Shown: in pieces, positions 8,300-63,451 of the stretch
Layout of the letters: each line of letters starts with the position of its first letter
Position numbering within the stretch: position 1 is the first letter of the stretch
From: Escherichia coli
Lineage (GTDB): Bacteria; Pseudomonadota; Gammaproteobacteria; Enterobacterales; Enterobacteriaceae
NCBI RefSeq assembly: GCF_011045215.1
Contig: NZ_CP049201.1
Strand: one strand, 5' to 3'
DNA: 64,000 nucleotides
Notes under the pieces: model-generated
Seen by the model: only the letters and a program-made list of their open reading frames with translations
Told to the model about the DNA's origin: nothing
Databases searched by the model: none
Program-made: the position numbers and the translations under genes

Positions 8300-8332
8300 T
8301 CCAAAAGCAAAAACCCGCCTTGTGGGCGGGTT
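8300..8332 (-). terminator. Rho-independent terminator downstream of the tRNA-Phe remnant
   Basis: GC stem CCCGCC/GGCGGG (8314-8330) followed on the minus strand by TTTTGCTTTTGG. Confidence 0.5.
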
Positions 8333-8343
8333 CTTAAGAATTA

Positions 8344-8362
8344 GTGGTGCCCGGACTCGGAA
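8344..8362 (-). repeat. 19-nt remnant of the tRNA-Phe 3' end (attachment-site core); not an intact tRNA
   Basis: TGGTGCCCGGACTCGGAAT is the reverse complement of the last 19 nt of E. coli tRNA-Phe including CCA; the match stops at nt 20. Confidence 0.65.
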
Positions 8363-8550
8363 TGAAACTGGTTATATAACCAATTGTTTTGTATTGACTG
8401 TTTTGCCTTTGCTGTTTTCGGGGCCACCAATGAGGCCCCCATGTGCAATTCGAATTCTTTTGACGCTATAATCCCTCTTTTTTGTGCTTTGCTGTAATCA
8501 TTTTGTCTGGTTCGATGTGTTGATGCGCGGAGTCGTACTTAACGCATTTG

Positions 8551-9498
8551 TTAGCTGGTCAGAACACTCAATGCTGTTTGTCTGAAACAGGAGTAGGCTT
8601 CTTCCCAGTCAATCTGTGTATTACCAAATACCATCGGTTTAACAAACCGTTGAAAACGCAATTTGTGTACAGGATCATCCCGGAGTGCATCCAGCCCTTT
8701 CTTAAGTTCATCAACTGGTGAGCTACAAAATTGTGGGTACTGGTTACCATAGCGTTCAATATCCTGTTGAATACATATCTGAACAAAATTTTTCAATACA
8801 GGAACATTCACACCTTTTTCCCTGACAATGCAGTAGTTGTCGTAAATGTGACGTACCAGGAACTCATCATCCTGTTGTTCGGGATTACGAAGATGTGCTG
8901 CTGTTCTTCGCATCATGGAGATGAGCTTTTCAGCCTGAGTGGACAAAATGGTGGCACAGGGGAATGCTGTTACAGGTGTACCTTTACCCGTTAACTCCGT
9001 GACAAGTGAATAAATATCTCTGCTTTCCGGATGTTCCAGCAGGGTGCTTTCCATCAACTCCAGCTTAATAAATGGACGAAGACAGGGGACTTGCGCAAAT
9101 GTCTGGGGATAACGTACCGAGATTTCGTTATAACGATACTCATCACGTGTTATACGGGCGTTTTCATTATCCAGGCTGAAAATGTCAGAATTATTAATAA
9201 CATCCGTGATTATTTGCACGATTTTCTTGCGAATTTTTCTTCTCTTGTCTCTGCCATTTTGCATAAAGTTCTCTGTTGGCACGAGCTTTATATCAATATC
9301 TTCTGACATTCTGTTCAATGAGATACCTGCTTTTGACAATGCGGTACCTCCTGCAAACACGAGAGTATGTGTTTCTGGTTTTATTTCTTTTAGTAACTTT
9401 AAAAGATTAACCACAAAATAATCTTTTTCGACGATAGCGACAGATTCAATATCCAGTGCGTTGGCAACGTCAGGAAATAATGATGTTAATTCAGGCAT
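8551..9498 (-). CDS. AbiEii-family nucleotidyltransferase (toxin of an AbiE-type TA/abortive-infection pair)
   Basis: 315 aa with the GGTAL...R.SEDIDI nucleotidyltransferase signature; overlaps the upstream AbiEi-like gene by 8 nt. Confidence 0.7.
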   Translation of the reverse strand: MPELTSLFPDVANALDIESVAIVEKDYFVVNLLKLLKEIKPETHTLVFAGGTALSKAGISLNRMSEDIDIKLVPTENFMQNGRDKRRKIRKKIVQIITDVINNSDIFSLDNENARITRDEYRYNEISVRYPQTFAQVPCLRPFIKLELMESTLLEHPESRDIYSLVTELTGKGTPVTAFPCATILSTQAEKLISMMRRTAAHLRNPEQQDDEFLVRHIYDNYCIVREKGVNVPVLKNFVQICIQQDIERYGNQYPQFCSSPVDELKKGLDALRDDPVHKLRFQRFVKPMVFGNTQIDWEEAYSCFRQTALSVLTS

Positions 9499-9886
9499 TG
9501 ATTTTACTTTTCCCTACAACTAACACTCTTTTAAAGCGAGGAGGTGTTTTGAACTCCGGAGACACCGGAATCTGTGTGGACTGACCTTTATTGTAGCATT
9601 CTGTTGCGCCGATCAAGCTGTATCTGATATTCAAAAGATCCAGGGCTTCGGTGATTACAGCAGCAGAGCCACCAGGTGCTGCAGGCATTATTTTTCCTGT
9701 AATAACGTTGCGACGGGCTTTGGTGTAAACACCATAGCCCACCTTCATCAACTTACCTTCGTTTACCAGTGTACGAAGAGCTCTGCCAACCTGATCATAG
9801 CCAGCGATATCCCTGAAGTCATCCCGGGTGAACACATAACGCTTTGAACGGTTCAGTCGGGACTGAATACGGTCTTTTGTAGTCAT
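9491..9886 (-). CDS. AbiEi-family antitoxin / winged-helix regulator
   Basis: ~131 aa from the ATG at 9886 (GGAGG upstream); wHTH-like N-terminus; operon partner of the AbiEii gene. Confidence 0.55.
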   Translation of the reverse strand: MTTKDRIQSRLNRSKRYVFTRDDFRDIAGYDQVGRALRTLVNEGKLMKVGYGVYTKARRNVITGKIMPAAPGGSAAVITEALDLLNIRYSLIGATECYNKGQSTQIPVSPEFKTPPRFKRVLVVGKSKINA

Positions 9887-9954
9887 GCTTCCTCCGAAAA
9901 ATATTAAGAATGATAGCAACAATACGGCATGTTTAATAGCGGGGCAGGGTCACA

Positions 9955-10803
9955 TTACCTTTCGGTCAATACATTTGGATAGTATTTCTCAATAATATCA
10001 TTAAGCCTGTCAACCAGTTCTGGTTTCCTGAACGTGATGTGTGCGGAGCCCTTCTTAAAGTATCTGATGCTGAACATCTTATCTTCATAGTCCTCTTTAC
10101 CCTGAACAGACTGGATGTGGTCATCCAGATGAATGGTGATGTTTTCCCGGTTGTCGGGGATCGGTTTGCCGCTGAACAGATACAGCATTCTTTCCAGGTC
10201 GGCAAGTCGATCTGCCTGTTGCCCGGTGATAAGATGAAACCCCCACCGGTCCCATCTCACCAGATTGTTGACGATAATTTTACTGCCAAATTTGCAGGGT
10301 GAGTTGGTTTTGTAATCCCAGCTCAGTCCCCTGAAGACGTTGATCACCCCTCGCTCAAACACCTCATCCTTATTCTGGTGCAGTTGTTCAAATGTGCTCA
10401 GGATATTCGCTTCACTGATTTCCGGAAAATTATCATATTCCAGTGACCGGTACCATGTATCACGGGCCTGTGCATCCATTAAGGACAGCATCCCGGAGCG
10501 TTGCATCAGGTCACGCCAGATTTCGCGGTCAAGATTCCGGGTAATGGCTTTCATTGCCGTTTCAGGTTTCTCCATCAGCCAGCAACCGCAGCGAAAATCC
10601 TGTTTCATGGCCCAGTCCAGAGCAGTTTTACCGCCAATACTTTCTGTCATTGCTGATATTTCTGCCAGTTGCCGGATAAGTGTGTCGATTTGCAGCAGCG
10701 TACTCTTTCGTACAGCCAGAATGTGGCGGATACTGGTTGAGCAGATAACGTCCATATGCCCGTTGACCACTTCCGGACGGGGGATTGTGATATCTGACAT
10801 CAT
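9955..10803 (-). CDS. Conserved island protein (DUF4942-like by recollection)
   Basis: 282-aa ORF with coding-like composition, lying downstream of the CbtA/CbeA module as in many E. coli islands; family name not verifiable here. Confidence 0.5.
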   Translation of the reverse strand: MMSDITIPRPEVVNGHMDVICSTSIRHILAVRKSTLLQIDTLIRQLAEISAMTESIGGKTALDWAMKQDFRCGCWLMEKPETAMKAITRNLDREIWRDLMQRSGMLSLMDAQARDTWYRSLEYDNFPEISEANILSTFEQLHQNKDEVFERGVINVFRGLSWDYKTNSPCKFGSKIIVNNLVRWDRWGFHLITGQQADRLADLERMLYLFSGKPIPDNRENITIHLDDHIQSVQGKEDYEDKMFSIRYFKKGSAHITFRKPELVDRLNDIIEKYYPNVLTER

Positions 10804-10884
10804 CGGTTTTCCTTCTTGTCTGTAAATGAAAAGGCCAGCCGTGTTCAGGCTGGCGTCAGTGGAATGAAGTCTGGTGAGTGAGAC

Positions 10885-11082
10885 TCACCGGTTCTGGTGC
10901 AGAAGCTGCAACTGGCGCAGTGTACGGATATCTTCCCTGGCCTGTTCAATGCAGGGCAGCAGTGCTGCCGAATCCGTTTTATCCTCATCGTTGTCAAAGA
11001 TAATTCCCGATTCGCAGTCGATATTGTCCTGCAGCCACGCAATCAGAATATCCAGCGCTGTTTCCGTGGTTAATGATTTCAT
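10885..11082 (-). CDS. Small hypothetical protein (YeeW-like position)
   Basis: 65 aa from internal Met MKSLTTETALDIL...; conserved position after the toxin module. Confidence 0.35.
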   Translation of the reverse strand: MKSLTTETALDILIAWLQDNIDCESGIIFDNDEDKTDSAALLPCIEQAREDIRTLRQLQLLHQNR

Positions 11083-11093
11083 GTTGTTTCTGG

Positions 11094-11582
11094 TTACCAG
11101 TCGAAAGTGGGTAAACCCGGCAGGCATTCAGCGCTGGCATCCAGATGAATGAGACTGACGCCATAACGTCGGGTAAGTGTGACAACCAGACGACGGAACG
11201 TTTTTGACAGGCCCAGGCGCTTAAGCCGCAGAACCGGGTATGACCACGCATCGGTACGTAACAGATATCCGCTACCTGTGAAATGAATCCATTCTGATTC
11301 GCCGGTGTCATTCGTCTGATGTGACAGCGAGTACAGCCAGGCGTTGTCCTTTTCCGTGATATGTGCGGTACTGCAGCGTATGCCGGTAAGGGCAGCAAAT
11401 GGTGGCGTGCAGTCTGCTGAGGTCCGGTCAGATTCATCAACAACACGAAGGGAGTAGCCGTTATCGCAGACCATGTTAATCAGTTCAGCGAGCTCAATAC
11501 CATCAACGTCAACGACAATGCGCCCCATGTTCAGTGCCTGCACGTTAATGCTGTCGGCTTCCAGCGTCAGGGCCAGTTTCAT
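11094..11582 (-). CDS. Hypothetical protein co-transcribed with the cbtA-like toxin
   Basis: 162 aa; its ATG overlaps the toxin stop codon (ATGA overlap). Confidence 0.5.
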
Positions 11583-11956
11583 TGTTTCGCCCCCGGATGT
11601 TTACCCTGGGTAATGTTATTTACCGTTCTGTAGTTGTCGCGTGTCATCAGGCCGGTTGCCCGGCGTGCCCGGAGGATATCGATGCTGTTTATTAACTGAG
11701 AACGGGTACAGGCGCTGAATCCCGGCTGGTCGGTACGCACCAGCGCGTATTTTTCCACGAGAAAGTTCACCGCATCACACAGTGAAATGCCAGCTTCAAT
11801 ATGCTGCTCAATCACACGTTCATCAGCGAACGGTGTGTCATTCAGTGTGAGACCGTAATGCTGGTCCAGCAGTCGGGTGAGCAGTGTCTGCCAGATGGTG
11901 ACGGGAGACGGGCAGCGCGATGCCTCCCGTACGTGTGTGTCAGGTAATGTTTTCAT
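11579..11956 (-). CDS. cbtA: CbtA/YeeV/YpjF-family toxin (cytoskeleton-targeting, type IV TA)
   Basis: 125 aa from MKTLP...; long near-identical stretches to recalled YeeV ([52 protein letters not shown]...). Confidence 0.85.
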
Positions 11957-12002
11957 CTTAAGTTCTCTGTAACTGGTAGTGCTAAAGGTGAGATATTCGG
12001 GG

Positions 12003-12377
12003 TTATGAGGTGGTTGCGGGTGCCAGTGTCGAATAAACAGCCATATAAACGTAACCACAGCTGCCGAGGGTGTCGGCTTCGCAGGTCAGCCCTCTGGCAT
12101 ACAGCGTGACGGTATGCTGATGGCGGGGATTCAGTTCACCGCTGGTGAGCATGAGTTCCAGTTGTTTCATCAGCAGCGGAAAGGCCTGGTCCAGATGATA
12201 CGCATCCGCGTCGCTAAACTGCCCCCTGATACCGGCGCGGTCGGCAAGGTAATGCAATTGATTGCCCTCCTGCACCAGACGTGCCCCGAAACAGGGCGTC
12301 ACGGTGCAGGGGAGCCCCCACCAGGGGCGGTCGTTGTTGTCGTTGGGATAATTTGTCACATGGAGTGTGTCTGACAC
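12003..12377 (-). CDS. cbeA: CbeA/YeeU/YfjZ-family antitoxin
   Basis: 124 aa; [23 protein letters not shown]...GELNPRHQH motif block; immediately upstream of the toxin. Confidence 0.85.
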
Positions 12378-29204: not shown

Positions 29205-29302
29205 CTGCCACATCTGATTTCGGGTGTGTTTCGGCAAGGTTGTTCAGTAAGGCATTCCTTCGTAAAATCAGCCTGTTTTTTGCACGACGGAAACCGGCAG
29301 CC

Positions 29303-32152
29303 ATGAAAATCTGTCTTTATCATACCCTGAATCCAGAGATCATCCCGGGCTATAAAAAATTTGCACAGGCCATTGCGGCTGATAACTTTGTTCAGGCTGA
29401 TGTTCGTAAAATTGATACCAATCTTTACCGTGCACGGCTCAGTATCCGGGATCGATTGCTGTTTTCGCTGTATCGTTATCATGGTGAAACTGTCTGCCTT
29501 GTACTGGAATATATTCGCAATCATGCCTATCACACTTCACGTTTTCTTCGCAAAAATGTGGTTATTGATGAAGACTGCGTACAACAACAACCTGTGCCGG
29601 ATCCTGTTGATATAGCGACTGAAACACTGACGTATATCAATCCGTCTCACGGGCGTTTTCATCGTCTGGATAAAATGTTGTCCTTTGATGATGAGCAGCA
29701 GGCGTTGTACGAACATCCGCTACCGCTGGTGATTGTGGGATCTGCAGGGAGTGGTAAGACGGCGCTGGTACTGGAAAAAATGAAGCAGGCCGCGGGTGAT
29801 ATACTGTATCTCAGCCTCTCCACATTTCTGGTGGAAAAAGCACGAACGCTTTATAACGCGTCGGGGGAAGGGAGTGATGCGCAGAATATTGACTTTCTGT
29901 CACTGACGGAATTCCTGGAAACCCTGCGCATTCCGGAAGGCCGGGAGGTGACCTTCAGGGCATTCAGCGACTGGCTGCCCCGCAACAGGACCACCGTTGC
30001 GCTGGGGTCTGCCCATACCCTGTATGAGGAGTTCCGGGGTGTGATTGGTGCGGCCGTTTCCGGCAACGGACCACTGTCCCGGGAGGTGTATCTGTCGCTG
30101 GGGGTACGGCAGTCGCTCTACAGTATGGATGATCGCCCGACGGTCTATGCCCTGTTCGAACGTTATACGGCATGGCTGAAACAGTCGCGTCAGTATGACA
30201 GTAATCTGCTCAGTCATCAGTACCTGCCGCTGGCAGAGCCCCGTTACGATGCCATTTTTGTCGATGAAGTTCAGGATATGACGCCTGTTCAGTTGCAACT
30301 GGTACTGAAAACATTGCGTCATCCCGGCCAGTTTTTGCTTTGTGGTGATGCCAGTCAGATTGTTCATCCCAGCTTTTTCTCATGGAGTTCACTTAAGAGC
30401 CTTTTTTTCCGGCAACACCAGGGGAACAATGCTGCCATTAATATCCTGCAGGCGAATTACCGTAACGGGCACCATATCACCGCACTGGCTAACCGTCTGC
30501 TGAGACTCAGACAGGCCCGGTTCAGCGCCATTGATCGGGAAAGCCACCATTTCGTCAGAAGCTGTGGTCAGACGGAAGGCGCAGTCCGGTTACTGGAAGA
30601 CCGGGAAGAAAACCGACAGGAGCTGAACACCAAAACCTCACGTTCGAATCGGGTGGCGGTCATTGTGATGCATCCGGAACAGAAAGTACAGGCACGTTGC
30701 TGGTTCAGTACACCGCTGGTTTTTTCAGTTCAGGAGGTTAAGGGGCTGGAATACGAAACGGTGATCCTCTACAACATGGTCAGCGGTGTCCGGCAGGCGT
30801 TTGATGATATCTGTGAGGGGATTTTTCTGGCGGATCTTGAGGGTGAGTCCCGTTATTCCCGTCCGCGGGACAGGCAGGATCGTTCAGCGGAAATCTACAG
30901 GTTTTTTATCAATGCGCTGTATGTTGCGTTCACCCGTGCCACGCACAACGTGTATCTTGTTGAACAGCAGGTGGCGCATCCGTTGTGGCGCCTGCTTGCG
31001 CTCACGCATCAGGAAGAGCAACTGAATCTGCAGGAGGAGATTTCCAGCCGTGATGAGTGGCAGAAAACTGCACATTTGCTTGAGAAACAAGGGAAGCAGG
31101 AGCAGGCGGATACCATCCGCAGCCGGCTCCTGCAGCAGTCTGAAGTACCGTGGCACATCATTACCGCAGAGGAAGCCCGGCAGTGGAAAGAACAGATCCT
31201 CGCAGGCACGGCCAGTAAAGCCACACAACTGCAGGCGCTGGAGTACAGTCTGATTTACTCCCTGTTTCCGCTGTATAATGCGCTGTACCGGGAAGATTTT
31301 AAGCCCACCAGACAGTCCAGGGCGAAGAGTCTGCTGTTGCTGGAGCAGAAATATTTCCGGCCATACTCGGTGAATAACCCGGTTGCGGTGTTGCGGGATA
31401 TTGAGCGTTATGGTGTTGATCACCGCTCGCCGTTTAATCTTACTCCGCTGATGTCAGCAGCCCGGGCAGGCAACATTGCACTGGTTCAGTTACTGCTTGA
31501 CCGTGGTGCAGATCCCTTGCTAATCGGTAATGACGGGCTGGCAGCTTATCATCACGTCCTGTCAGCGGCGGTCAGTACGCCCCGTTATGCGCAACAGAAA
31601 AGTGCGCAGTTGTATACCCTGCTGAGACCAGAAAGTCTCTCACTGCAGGTGGAAGAACGGCTCATCAAACTGGACAACCGGCAGATGGCAATGTTTCTGG
31701 TGCTCCTGATGCAGGCACTGTTCTTCACGCATCTGGGGAGTGCTCTGGCCTTTTCGGAAGCTTTCAGTGCGGCACGACTGGCAGAGTGTGTGGCTCACCT
31801 TCCTGAAGCGTTGTTGCCGGAGCGCCGCAAAAGAAGGAATTATATCAGCAGCCAGCTTTCTCAACATGAGGTTAACAGCAAAAACCCTTATGGAAAAAAG
31901 CTCTTTCTGAGACTGAATCATGGGCAGTATATTCTTAATCCGGGGCTTAAAATCAGACAGGGTGACGTGTGGTGTGCGGTTTATGAGTTGCAGTCACCGG
32001 AAGATCTCGGTCATGATTTGCAGACTTATCTGCAGGACATGTCTCCGGAATTCGTGGAGATTCTGGGGGGGAGGAAGGATTTTTACAAACACAGTGAGGA
32101 GGTTGTCGGATACTGGGTGGAGGTGATTCGTCGTGCTGGTCTGAAAGCGTGA
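29303..32152 (+). CDS. Large SF1 (UvrD/RecD-like) helicase with unknown N-terminal domain and C-terminal ankyrin-like repeats
   Basis: Walker A GSAGSGKT, Walker B FVDEVQD, motif III GDASQ, motif V KGLEYETV, motif VI VAFTRAT; ankyrin-like LTPLMSAARAGNIALVQLLLDRGADPLLIGNDG; ATG at 29303 (ORF track starts at a TTG at 29240). Confidence 0.7.
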   Translation: MKICLYHTLNPEIIPGYKKFAQAIAADNFVQADVRKIDTNLYRARLSIRDRLLFSLYRYHGETVCLVLEYIRNHAYHTSRFLRKNVVIDEDCVQQQPVPDPVDIATETLTYINPSHGRFHRLDKMLSFDDEQQALYEHPLPLVIVGSAGSGKTALVLEKMKQAAGDILYLSLSTFLVEKARTLYNASGEGSDAQNIDFLSLTEFLETLRIPEGREVTFRAFSDWLPRNRTTVALGSAHTLYEEFRGVIGAAVSGNGPLSREVYLSLGVRQSLYSMDDRPTVYALFERYTAWLKQSRQYDSNLLSHQYLPLAEPRYDAIFVDEVQDMTPVQLQLVLKTLRHPGQFLLCGDASQIVHPSFFSWSSLKSLFFRQHQGNNAAINILQANYRNGHHITALANRLLRLRQARFSAIDRESHHFVRSCGQTEGAVRLLEDREENRQELNTKTSRSNRVAVIVMHPEQKVQARCWFSTPLVFSVQEVKGLEYETVILYNMVSGVRQAFDDICEGIFLADLEGESRYSRPRDRQDRSAEIYRFFINALYVAFTRATHNVYLVEQQVAHPLWRLLALTHQEEQLNLQEEISSRDEWQKTAHLLEKQGKQEQADTIRSRLLQQSEVPWHIITAEEARQWKEQILAGTASKATQLQALEYSLIYSLFPLYNALYREDFKPTRQSRAKSLLLLEQKYFRPYSVNNPVAVLRDIERYGVDHRSPFNLTPLMSAARAGNIALVQLLLDRGADPLLIGNDGLAAYHHVLSAAVSTPRYAQQKSAQLYTLLRPESLSLQVEERLIKLDNRQMAMFLVLLMQALFFTHLGSALAFSEAFSAARLAECVAHLPEALLPERRKRRNYISSQLSQHEVNSKNPYGKKLFLRLNHGQYILNPGLKIRQGDVWCAVYELQSPEDLGHDLQTYLQDMSPEFVEILGGRKDFYKHSEEVVGYWVEVIRRAGLKA

Positions 32153-62200: not shown

Positions 62201-63451
62201 TTGTTAATGAGAAAAGCAGAAGTGAATGACTCTTTCATCACAAAAATCCTGACAGGTAATAACGTTCTGCGTGCTGCAATTGCCCGCATTGAGTGGGTTT
62301 TTGAAACATTTCCGTCGGTATGTCTGTCTTTTTCAGGTGGAAAGGATTCCACCGTACTGTTCCATCTTGTGGCAAATGTGGCCCGCAGGAAAAAACGTCG
62401 ATTCTCTGTACTGTTCATTGACTGGGAAGCCCAGTACCAGTGTACCGTTGAACATATTCAGAAGATGCGGAATATGTACGGGGATGTGACGGAGACCTTT
62501 TACTGGGTGGCACTTCCCCTGACCACGGTAAACGGTGTCTCACAGTTTCAGCCGGAGTGGATATGCTGGGAACCTGGTGTGACCTGGGTCCGTCAGCCAC
62601 CGGAAGAGGCCATTACGGATATGGCGTATTTTCCCTTCTACCGGTATGCCATGACCTTTGAAGAATTTGTTCCGGCATTTTCTTCCTGGTTTGCCGGTAA
62701 CCGGTGCGGTGTGGCGATACTGACTGGTGTCCGTGCGGATGAATCCCTCAACCGCTTTATGGGACTGGTGTCTCAGCGTAAGCTCAGATATGCCGATGAT
62801 AAACCCTGGACCACGGCATCACCTCAAGGGTTTTACTACACCATGTATCCATTGTATGACTGGAAAGCCCGTGATATCTGGATATATAACGCCAGAACCC
62901 GTGCCATCTACAATCCCCTGTATGACCTGATGTACCGTGCCGGTGTGCCGTTACGTAACATGCGTGTCTGTGAGCCTTTTGGCCCGGAACAACGTAAGGG
63001 GCTGTGGCTTTACCATGTTCTGGAGCCGGAAACCTGGGCCAGGATGTGTGAGCGGGTGTCAGGGGCTGCCAGTGGGGCGCGTTATGCCAATGAAAGCGGT
63101 GCCTATTTTGCCCTGCGTAAACGTATATCAAAACCGGCTCATCATACCTGGCGCAGCTATGCGATGTTCCTGCTGGATGTGATGCCGGAAAGAACGGCAG
63201 AACATTACCGTAACAAAATTGCTGTCTACCTGCGCTGGTATCAAACGCGGGGCTTCCCGGACGATATCCCGGATGAACAGGAAAATGACCTGGGCTGCCG
63301 GGATATTCCGTCCTGGCGACGTATCTGTAAGACACTCATAAAGAATGATTTCTGGTGCCGGACCCTCTCCTTCAGCCCGAACAAACCCCGGCACTATGAA
63401 CGTTACCTGCAGCGTATGAAAGAAAGGAGGAAGGAATGGGGGATTCTGTGA
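62201..63451 (+). CDS. PAPS-reductase-family (PP-loop) protein, IbrA-like
   Basis: PP-loop motif SFSGGKDS near the N-terminus; ~415 aa; stop overlaps the start of the downstream ParB-like gene; start TTG at 62201 or ATG at 62207. Confidence 0.7.
   Translation: MLMRKAEVNDSFITKILTGNNVLRAAIARIEWVFETFPSVCLSFSGGKDSTVLFHLVANVARRKKRRFSVLFIDWEAQYQCTVEHIQKMRNMYGDVTETFYWVALPLTTVNGVSQFQPEWICWEPGVTWVRQPPEEAITDMAYFPFYRYAMTFEEFVPAFSSWFAGNRCGVAILTGVRADESLNRFMGLVSQRKLRYADDKPWTTASPQGFYYTMYPLYDWKARDIWIYNARTRAIYNPLYDLMYRAGVPLRNMRVCEPFGPEQRKGLWLYHVLEPETWARMCERVSGAASGARYANESGAYFALRKRISKPAHHTWRSYAMFLLDVMPERTAEHYRNKIAVYLRWYQTRGFPDDIPDEQENDLGCRDIPSWRRICKTLIKNDFWCRTLSFSPNKPRHYERYLQRMKERRKEWGIL

Follow-up and report, generated by a model that had tools for sequence, protein, structure and literature searches.

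Two overlapping genes in Escherichia coli very likely form an intact, self-contained toxin-antitoxin or abortive-infection module of the AbiE superfamily, which belongs to the short-antitoxin branch (DUF6088; SanaTA type) and stands last among the cargo of a CP4-like island at tRNA-Phe. Gene order and overlap, family membership, intact catalytic motifs and purifying selection are established here for the copy in the window, as we call the whole stretch of 64,000 nucleotides that was analysed (Table 1). The module itself is already known: PADLOC annotates it as AbiE, NCBI has a name for it, SanaTA is a homologue, and earlier work has dealt with this very locus in E. coli. What we add to database knowledge is only the distribution of intact and frameshifted toxin alleles and a conserved motif upstream of the pair.

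Table 1. Features of the gene pair and of the adjacent island boundary, in window coordinates.
Feature	Position	Strand	Description
Toxin gene	8551..9498	minus	315-aa DUF1814/AbiEii-family nucleotidyltransferase, SanaT-like, intact
Antitoxin gene	9491..9886	minus	131-aa DUF6088/short AbiEi, SanaA-like; N-terminal winged helix and small alpha/beta domain
Gene overlap, 8 nt	9491..9498	minus	ATGCCTGA; toxin start codon and antitoxin stop codon; read from the sequence
Shine-Dalgarno GGAGGA	9890..9895	minus	4 nt 5' of the antitoxin ATG; from the sequence
Candidate promoter/operator	9910..9931	minus	CATGCCGTATTGTTGCTATCAT; conserved ATGYCGTAT-N-TTTGC running into extended -10-like TGnTATCAT
Island boundary, 19-nt tRNA-Phe 3'-end remnant (att repeat)	8345..8363	minus	TGGTGCCCGGACTCGGAAT
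Terminator-like hairpin just outside the island	8308..8336	minus	terminator scan: 12-bp stem and T-run; first strong one downstream of the toxin gene

Read along the minus strand, which carries both, the antitoxin gene comes first and the toxin gene second. The 8-nt overlap between the two, which the preliminary description had already reported for a nucleotidyltransferase and a small winged-helix partner, is confirmed and suggests that their translation is coupled. An identical 8-nt overlap is found in E24377A and in Pantoea, and one of 4 nt in the Shewanella pair; in other genera, where the pair is found together in unrelated contexts, the antitoxin-then-toxin arrangement is kept. The program that listed the reading frames starts the antitoxin at a TTG (9491..9922, minus strand, 143 aa). 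Judged by its surroundings, the true start is the ATG at 9886, since GGAGGA precedes it and the homologues begin at the same methionine, as do all 33 of the 33 aligned (MT(T/I)K); this start yields the length of about 131 aa given earlier. The pair is not a chance assembly, because the toxin matches Pfam AbiEii (PF08843; E=2.6e-30, 106.5 bits against a cut-off of 22.5) and the PADLOC AbiEii model PDLC02297 (E=5e-125, residues 1-313, end to end), and the antitoxin matches the PADLOC AbiEi model PDLC02229 (E=7e-51), likewise end to end. Neither protein scores above the cut-off of any NCBIfam model. An RNA antitoxin is excluded, because no Rfam family was found anywhere in the window.

The toxin is a pol-beta-type nucleotidyltransferase of PF08843 with the GG and DxD motifs. 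Both strings on which it had first been recognised, GGTAL and SEDIDI (LVFAGGTALSKAGISLNRMSEDIDIKL; FAGGTALSKAGISLNRMSEDIDIKL), are present in the 315-aa protein and contain G50-G51 and S65-E66-D67-I68-D69. Across 28 homologues, G50, G51, S65, E66, D69, K71, E147, E150, R216, H217 and D220 are invariant, as is a string of residues within 246-290, and D67 is nearly so; the window toxin has all the invariant residues. It is also full length and collinear to its last residue with homologues from other genera, and its dN/dS is 0.18 when the window is compared with E24377A. The AlphaFold (AF2) model of the toxin (pLDDT 92.3) finds its best PDB match in MenT4/Rv2826c (6y56, E=5.7e-7, TM 0.62), followed by MenT3/TglT. 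PDB searches by sequence, run for both partners with the single proteins and with family profiles, gave nothing significant; the best match was MenT4, which aligned along the GG..DxD stretch with E=0.64. The tie to solved structures therefore rests on the comparison of predicted folds.

The preliminary description had raised the possibility that an antitoxin of this size is a new minimal variant of AbiEi. This does not hold, as 131 aa is native to a widespread and modelled family, which is found in Enterobacterales and outside that order. By its profile match, the short form is an already catalogued AbiEi subfamily, because PDLC02229 itself has 131 positions, and the protein also exceeds the Pfam threshold for DUF6088 (31.4 bits, cut-off 25; profile positions 5-120 of 172). 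It falls narrowly below the threshold of AbiEi_4 (22.8 bits, cut-off 25). It is not a canonical AbiEi, which has about 196 aa, a large C-terminal domain and a score above the cut-off of the NCBIfam equivalog NF047376: here the score is 14 bits against a cut-off of 150, and the C-terminal domain has about 65 residues. The identical 131-aa protein is held at NCBI as 'type IV toxin-antitoxin system AbiEi family antitoxin domain-containing protein [Escherichia coli]' and is found on 516 contigs. A length of exactly 131 aa is also shared by nearly all the homologues in Citrobacter, Klebsiella, Serratia, Pantoea, Dickeya, Pectobacterium, Photorhabdus, Xenorhabdus, Yersinia and Proteus. An exhaustive search of cluster representatives gave 682 relatives at E<=1e-3, mostly of 125-150 aa; a smaller group, at about 200 aa, has an added N-terminal winged helix, and its C-terminus is not longer.

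The AlphaFold model of the antitoxin, built on a 73-sequence alignment (pLDDT 95.4), has a winged helix-turn-helix in residues 1-60 and a small alpha/beta domain in residues 66-129. In Foldseek, its best full-length match is Rv2827c/MenA4 (1zel, TM 0.57, 125 columns), followed by S. agalactiae AbiEi (6y8q). A lack of any similarity to AbiEi had been named in advance as telling against an AbiE pair; such similarity is found, both with the PADLOC AbiEi models and in these structural matches, and together with the PF08843 match of the toxin it upholds the AbiE assignment. The antitoxin is itself under purifying selection, with a dN/dS of about 0.11 between the window and ExPEC alleles. In its C-terminal domain, only Q105, P107 and R120 are invariant or nearly so across the wide family, and the first two belong to the STQIP segment (103-107), which is located in the long loop after helix 5.

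[quoted passage not shown] 2013. A plasmid of that strain (NC_008573) carries a 136-aa DUF6088 gene that overlaps a 313-aa AbiEii gene beside a type I restriction-modification system, and we infer that this pair is SanaTA from the organism, the antitoxin length of 136 aa and the S65 of the toxin, in place of an accession. To its antitoxin, ours is 45% identical over 126 aa (E=5e-39), and the toxins are 42% identical over all 315 aa (E=3e-89). This end-to-end homology of both proteins places the window pair in the SanaTA type, subject to that identification. SanaTA has been described in two sources (bioRxiv 10.64898/2026.01.19.700257; PMC8230891). It has been validated by experiment as a toxin-antitoxin system, and it gives E. 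coli protection against T7 lacking gene 4.5. SanaA, of 136 aa, lacks helices and strands present at the C-terminus of AbiEi, RlegA and SdenA and keeps the essential loop, and S65 of SanaT is the counterpart of the AbiEii phosphoacceptor T65 (bioRxiv 10.64898/2026.01.19.700257).

Upstream of the antitoxin, on the coding strand, the motif ATGYCGTAT-N-TTTGC is present at seven of ten independent loci, namely those of the window, Shewanella, Pantoea, Proteus and three metagenomic sequences, and it is absent from the other three loci examined, the more distant ones. Each of the seven loci has a single copy or two direct copies at a spacing of 23-24 bp, and the proximal copy usually continues into an extended -10-like element, TGnTAT(C/G)AT. 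In the eight test loci, which are the set minus the two in which the motif was first seen, TGYCGTAT was found five times, while 5000 shuffles reached a maximum of three, and this once. The conserved motif points to an autoregulated promoter of the pair's own. A generic sigma-70 scan returned no promoter 5' of the antitoxin at its threshold. An 11-nt imperfect inverted repeat (9902-9938) was considered and set aside as the operator; it is not conserved in the other loci. The candidate operator is of the direct-repeat type, in contrast to the inverted repeats of the S. agalactiae AbiE promoter.

DUF1814 toxins such as MenT1, MenT3, MenT4 and AbiEii add nucleotides to the 3'-CCA ends of tRNA and so block aminoacylation, and the same has been proposed for Serratia AbiE-T2 (PMC7725324; bioRxiv 10.64898/2026.01.19.700257). 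Growth arrest by the toxin and rescue by the antitoxin have been shown for S. agalactiae AbiE, Serratia AbiE-2 and SanaTA (PMC3985639; PMC7725324; bioRxiv 10.64898/2026.01.19.700257). A point against the present reading is that none of 32 coliphages was held back by S. agalactiae AbiE (bioRxiv 10.64898/2026.01.19.700257). By analogy with AbiEii, MenT1/3/4, Serratia AbiE-T2 and SanaT, the window toxin would add nucleotides to tRNA 3'-CCA ends, which would block aminoacylation and translation and lead to a reversible growth arrest. The antitoxin would probably repress its own promoter through the N-terminal winged helix, presumably at the candidate operator ATGYCGTAT-N-TTTGC over the -10 region, and its small C-terminal domain would probably neutralise the toxin. 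If the antitoxin were lost, be it by a phage-induced shut-off, by Lon degradation (the proposal made for SanaA) or because the island itself disappears, the toxin would be free to act in phage defence, in island retention, or in both. The toxicity, tRNA target, phosphorylation, autoregulation and phage defence that we expect of this pair are transferred from homologues at no more than 45% identity.

How the toxin is neutralised deserves separate consideration. In 2014, AbiEi was classed as an antitoxin of type IV, which represses the operon encoding it and does not interact with the toxin (Dy et al. 2014, PMC3985639), while a 2026 preprint reports that AbiEi binds AbiEii and induces auto-phosphorylation of T65 via a conserved loop after helix 5 (bioRxiv 10.64898/2026.01.19.700257). 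Following the latter, the likeliest route for the window pair would be that the antitoxin docks on the toxin and induces auto-phosphorylation of Ser65, the equivalent of AbiEii T65 and SanaT S65, with the family-invariant STQIP loop as the candidate contact. With regard to such a putative type VII mechanism, the toxin has a serine two residues before the DxD motif, invariant in the 28 homologues, and the antitoxin has an invariant Q105/P107 loop after helix 5. It is possible, if somewhat doubtful, that the short antitoxin works unlike canonical AbiEi, either by binding the toxin directly while being subject to Lon degradation (type II-like, the original proposal for SanaA) or with no stable contact to it (type IV), and not by auto-phosphorylation. 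Neutralisation may indeed differ, as the closest solved pair, MenA4/MenT4, reportedly shows neither interaction nor phosphorylation; moreover, the additional helices and strands found at the C-terminus in AbiEi, RlegA and SdenA are missing from the short antitoxin, and a dependence on Lon and T7 Gp4.5 has been reported for SanaTA, in the Shewanella system only. However, the invariance of the phosphoacceptor-equivalent Ser65 and of the antitoxin loop (Q105, P107) argues for auto-phosphorylation, as does the AlphaFold model of SanaA:SanaT, which resembles the AbiEi:AbiEii crystal complex and places the antitoxin loop beside S65 (bioRxiv 10.64898/2026.01.19.700257).

The preliminary description placed the pair as the outermost cargo of an island, and the boundary bears this out. 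The att remnant, which we take to be the reverse complement of the 3' end of E. coli tRNA-Phe (TGGTGCCCGGACTCGGAAT), lies 188 bp past the stop codon of the toxin; where this island is inserted elsewhere in the chromosome, its matches start at window positions 8335/8345, and the left side of the pair beyond this point is occupied by the core genes gspE to gspL and yghD. The terminator-like hairpin is found there as well, and the operon may use it as its terminator. To the right of the pair, DUF4942, DUF957, DUF5983, CbtA, CbeA, DUF987, a JAB/RadC-like protein, an antirestriction protein and DUF932 make up the usual end of a CP4-like island. A tRNA search of the window found none, so there is no intact tRNA-Phe at the pair's end; island-type genes continue up to the right end of the window and, because the window is without an intact tRNA, the island extends past it. 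The neighbouring DUF4942 gene was rejected as a third component of the module: a query spanning DUF4942 and its flanks matches 5202 genomes while the pair is present in only about 650, and the unrelated neighbours of the pair in other genera speak against it too.

This position raises the question of whether the pair serves mainly for addiction (post-segregational), by which the tRNA-Phe island is retained in the chromosome, rather than for phage defence. The pair is terminal, at about 200 bp from the att remnant, and a second toxin-antitoxin pair, CbtA/CbeA, is close by. In addition, AbiE stabilises plasmids (PMC3985639), an AbiE system is reported to stabilise an integrative conjugative element in S. 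suis (PMC11062541), and maintenance of the capsule locus was proposed by McGarry et al. (PMC12488582). Nevertheless, most E. coli copies keep the island even though the toxin frame is lost, which argues that the toxin is unneeded for retention, and deletion of the locus in CFT073 changes the sensitivity to some phages (PMC12488582). Addiction is also compatible with defence and does not exclude it, as the protection by SanaTA against T7 lacking gene 4.5 illustrates. We regard a role mainly in addiction as possible but rather improbable.

Of 5426 complete E. coli genomes, 652 carry the pair, and PGAP names its members 'AbiEii/AbiGii toxin family protein' and 'DUF6088 family protein'. For strain C5, there is one record in which the whole pair matches the window at 100% identity. 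Of the toxin alleles in E. coli, the commonest, on at least 1000 contigs, is 305 aa long; it agrees with that of the window up to residue 243 and is read in another frame from there on, owing to a 14-bp deletion that corresponds to window positions 8754-8767. Among 39 full-length records, taken as an even sample down the match ranking, 35 span 1322-1323 bp and not 1336, and PGAP marks the toxin copies of JJ1887 and CFT073 as 'frameshifted'. Thus, the window holds the less common, intact toxin allele, because most E. coli copies carry the 14-bp deletion. A studied example is that of CFT073, where the AbiEi/AbiEii locus c3681-c3682 lies upstream of the kps capsule genes and is conserved in >500 genomes, and where its deletion alters the sensitivity to some BASEL phages (McGarry et al. 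2025, PMC12488582). The phenotypes of that deletion are modest, and the toxin of that strain is frameshifted. Although most E. coli copies are frameshifted after residue 243 and are called pseudogenes by PGAP, it is very unlikely that the window locus is a decaying, non-functional remnant, given a full-length toxin with all invariant residues, a dN/dS of 0.1-0.2, and a Shine-Dalgarno sequence, gene overlap and conserved upstream motif that are all kept.

A broader departure from canonical AbiEi may be entertained, unlikely as we think it is, in which a short SanaA-type antitoxin controls both the toxin and the promoter in a different manner, for example by Lon-labile binding without phosphorylation and at a direct-repeat rather than an inverted operator (ATGYCGTAT-N-TTTGC). 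Where the toxin is frameshifted, the antitoxin might then persist as a stand-alone regulator or an anti-addiction factor. For the preferred reading, an intact SanaTA-type module, the value of the present analysis is one of clarification, in that the short antitoxin is a native trait of its family. The intact window allele would be preferable for functional tests, the copies of CFT073 and most ExPEC being frameshifted, and the upstream motif provides a concrete operator candidate for the SanaTA/DUF6088 branch.

Compared with known systems, the pair shares its locus and island backbone (DUF4942, DUF6088, AbiEii) with c3681-c3682 of CFT073, at a DNA identity of about 94%. However, in CFT073 and most ExPEC the frameshifted toxin is followed by an IS110 remnant and the kps cluster, whereas in the window an intact toxin gene is directly followed by the att remnant. 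Mycobacterium tuberculosis supplies the best solved-structure matches of both partners, MenA4/MenT4 (Rv2827c/Rv2826c) and MenA3/MenT3. Its MenT toxins, which the window toxin resembles in fold, act as nucleotidyltransferases on the 3' end of tRNA; sequence identity is only 13-20%, MenA4 has 293 aa, and MenT4 is reportedly neither bound nor phosphorylated by it. With AbiEi/AbiEii of Lactococcus lactis and Streptococcus agalactiae (PMC3985639; PDB 6Y8Q), the pair has in common the bicistronic order of a winged-helix antitoxin gene and then a DUF1814 toxin gene, the GG and DxD motifs of the toxin and the phosphoacceptor position, and PADLOC files both under AbiE. Finally, SanaTA differs in its setting, a conjugative plasmid beside type I restriction-modification instead of a chromosomal tRNA-Phe island, in an overlap of 4 nt instead of 8 nt and in having two operator-like repeats instead of one; it was tested experimentally, while the window allele is known from sequence alone. 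Nonetheless, both systems place a short DUF6088 antitoxin (136 and 131 aa) upstream of an overlapping DUF1814 toxin of about 313-315 aa, both toxins carry Ser65 within RMSEDxDIK (RMSEDVDIK in ANA-3), and both loci lie on mobile DNA and have the upstream motif TGCCGTATT.

The antitoxin-toxin operon of the window is, at the level of its nucleotide sequence, a mosaic. When positions 8551-9886 were compared with L001 and L003, the comparison loci for E24377A and the ExPEC allele, the antitoxin gene was identical to that of E24377A (0 differences in 396 nt) but showed about 41 mismatches to the ExPEC allele over the same 396 nt. The toxin gene had 40 differences from E24377A, and over its first 729 nt it was nearer to the ExPEC allele (18 differences). 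These alignments suggest recombination within the pair.

The toxin gene of the window contains a 14-bp stretch at 8754-8767 (ACAGGATATTGAAC on the coding strand) that is missing from most E. coli copies (compare L003 3501-4434 and L012 39760-40694). This loss shifts the frame after toxin residue 243 and replaces a conserved C-terminus, and PGAP labels the JJ1887 and CFT073 copies 'frameshifted'. The antitoxin gene is still intact where the toxin is frameshifted. The published CFT073 'TA' phenotypes (McGarry et al. 2025, PMC12488582) were therefore obtained in a strain whose toxin is disrupted.

Upstream of the antitoxin, the motif ATGYCGTAT-N-TTTGC is a candidate operator for SanaA-type antitoxins. 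Besides the two sites tabulated, it precedes the antitoxin in the comparison loci L004, L005, L006, L007 and L009, occurs as one or two direct copies spaced by about 23 bp, and overlaps an extended -10-like element, TGnTATCAT. As far as could be ascertained, no earlier description of it was found.

Features of the window and of one comparison locus (L002)
Feature	Position	Strand	Remark
CP4-like island end, standard type	9955-12058	-	adjoins AbiE pair
DUF4942	9955-10803	-	
DUF957, DUF5983, CbtA-family toxin	within 9955-12058	-	
ATGYCGTAT-N-TTTGC	9910-9931	-	conserved, non-coding, upstream of antitoxin
ATGYCGTAT-N-TTTGC	L002 21845-21875		upstream of antitoxin
970-aa protein, UvrD/SF1 helicase motifs, ankyrin repeat	29240-32152	+	inside island
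IS66 transposase	40242-41780	-	island cargo
Chaperone-usher fimbrial usher, PapC-like	45053-47629	+	island cargo
PAPS-reductase/DUF3440 protein	62201-63451	+	island cargo

A second toxin-antitoxin module, with the CbtA-family toxin, directly flanks the AbiE pair; CbeA is expected immediately past this segment. Elsewhere in the island, the helicase-ankyrin gene may be a further defence-type gene, and the PAPS-reductase/DUF3440 protein presumably resembles IbrA. The island reaches the right end of the window, and no tRNA gene was found.

Some antitoxin relatives are longer. In P0263, P0266 and P0276 (about 200 aa) and P0246 (277 aa), the DUF6088 region lies at residues ~70-190 and is preceded by an additional AbiEi_4-type winged helix. 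Of the relatives of ~200 aa that were checked, the first three are thus lengthened at the N-terminus and not at the C-terminus, while P0269, P0308, P0326 and P0306 carry a C-terminal extension instead. Downstream of the DUF6088 genes at L005 2501-3929 (Proteus mirabilis) and L008 1501-2234, no toxin gene is called. Both may be orphan antitoxins or partners of decayed toxins, the latter resembling the frameshifted E. coli alleles.
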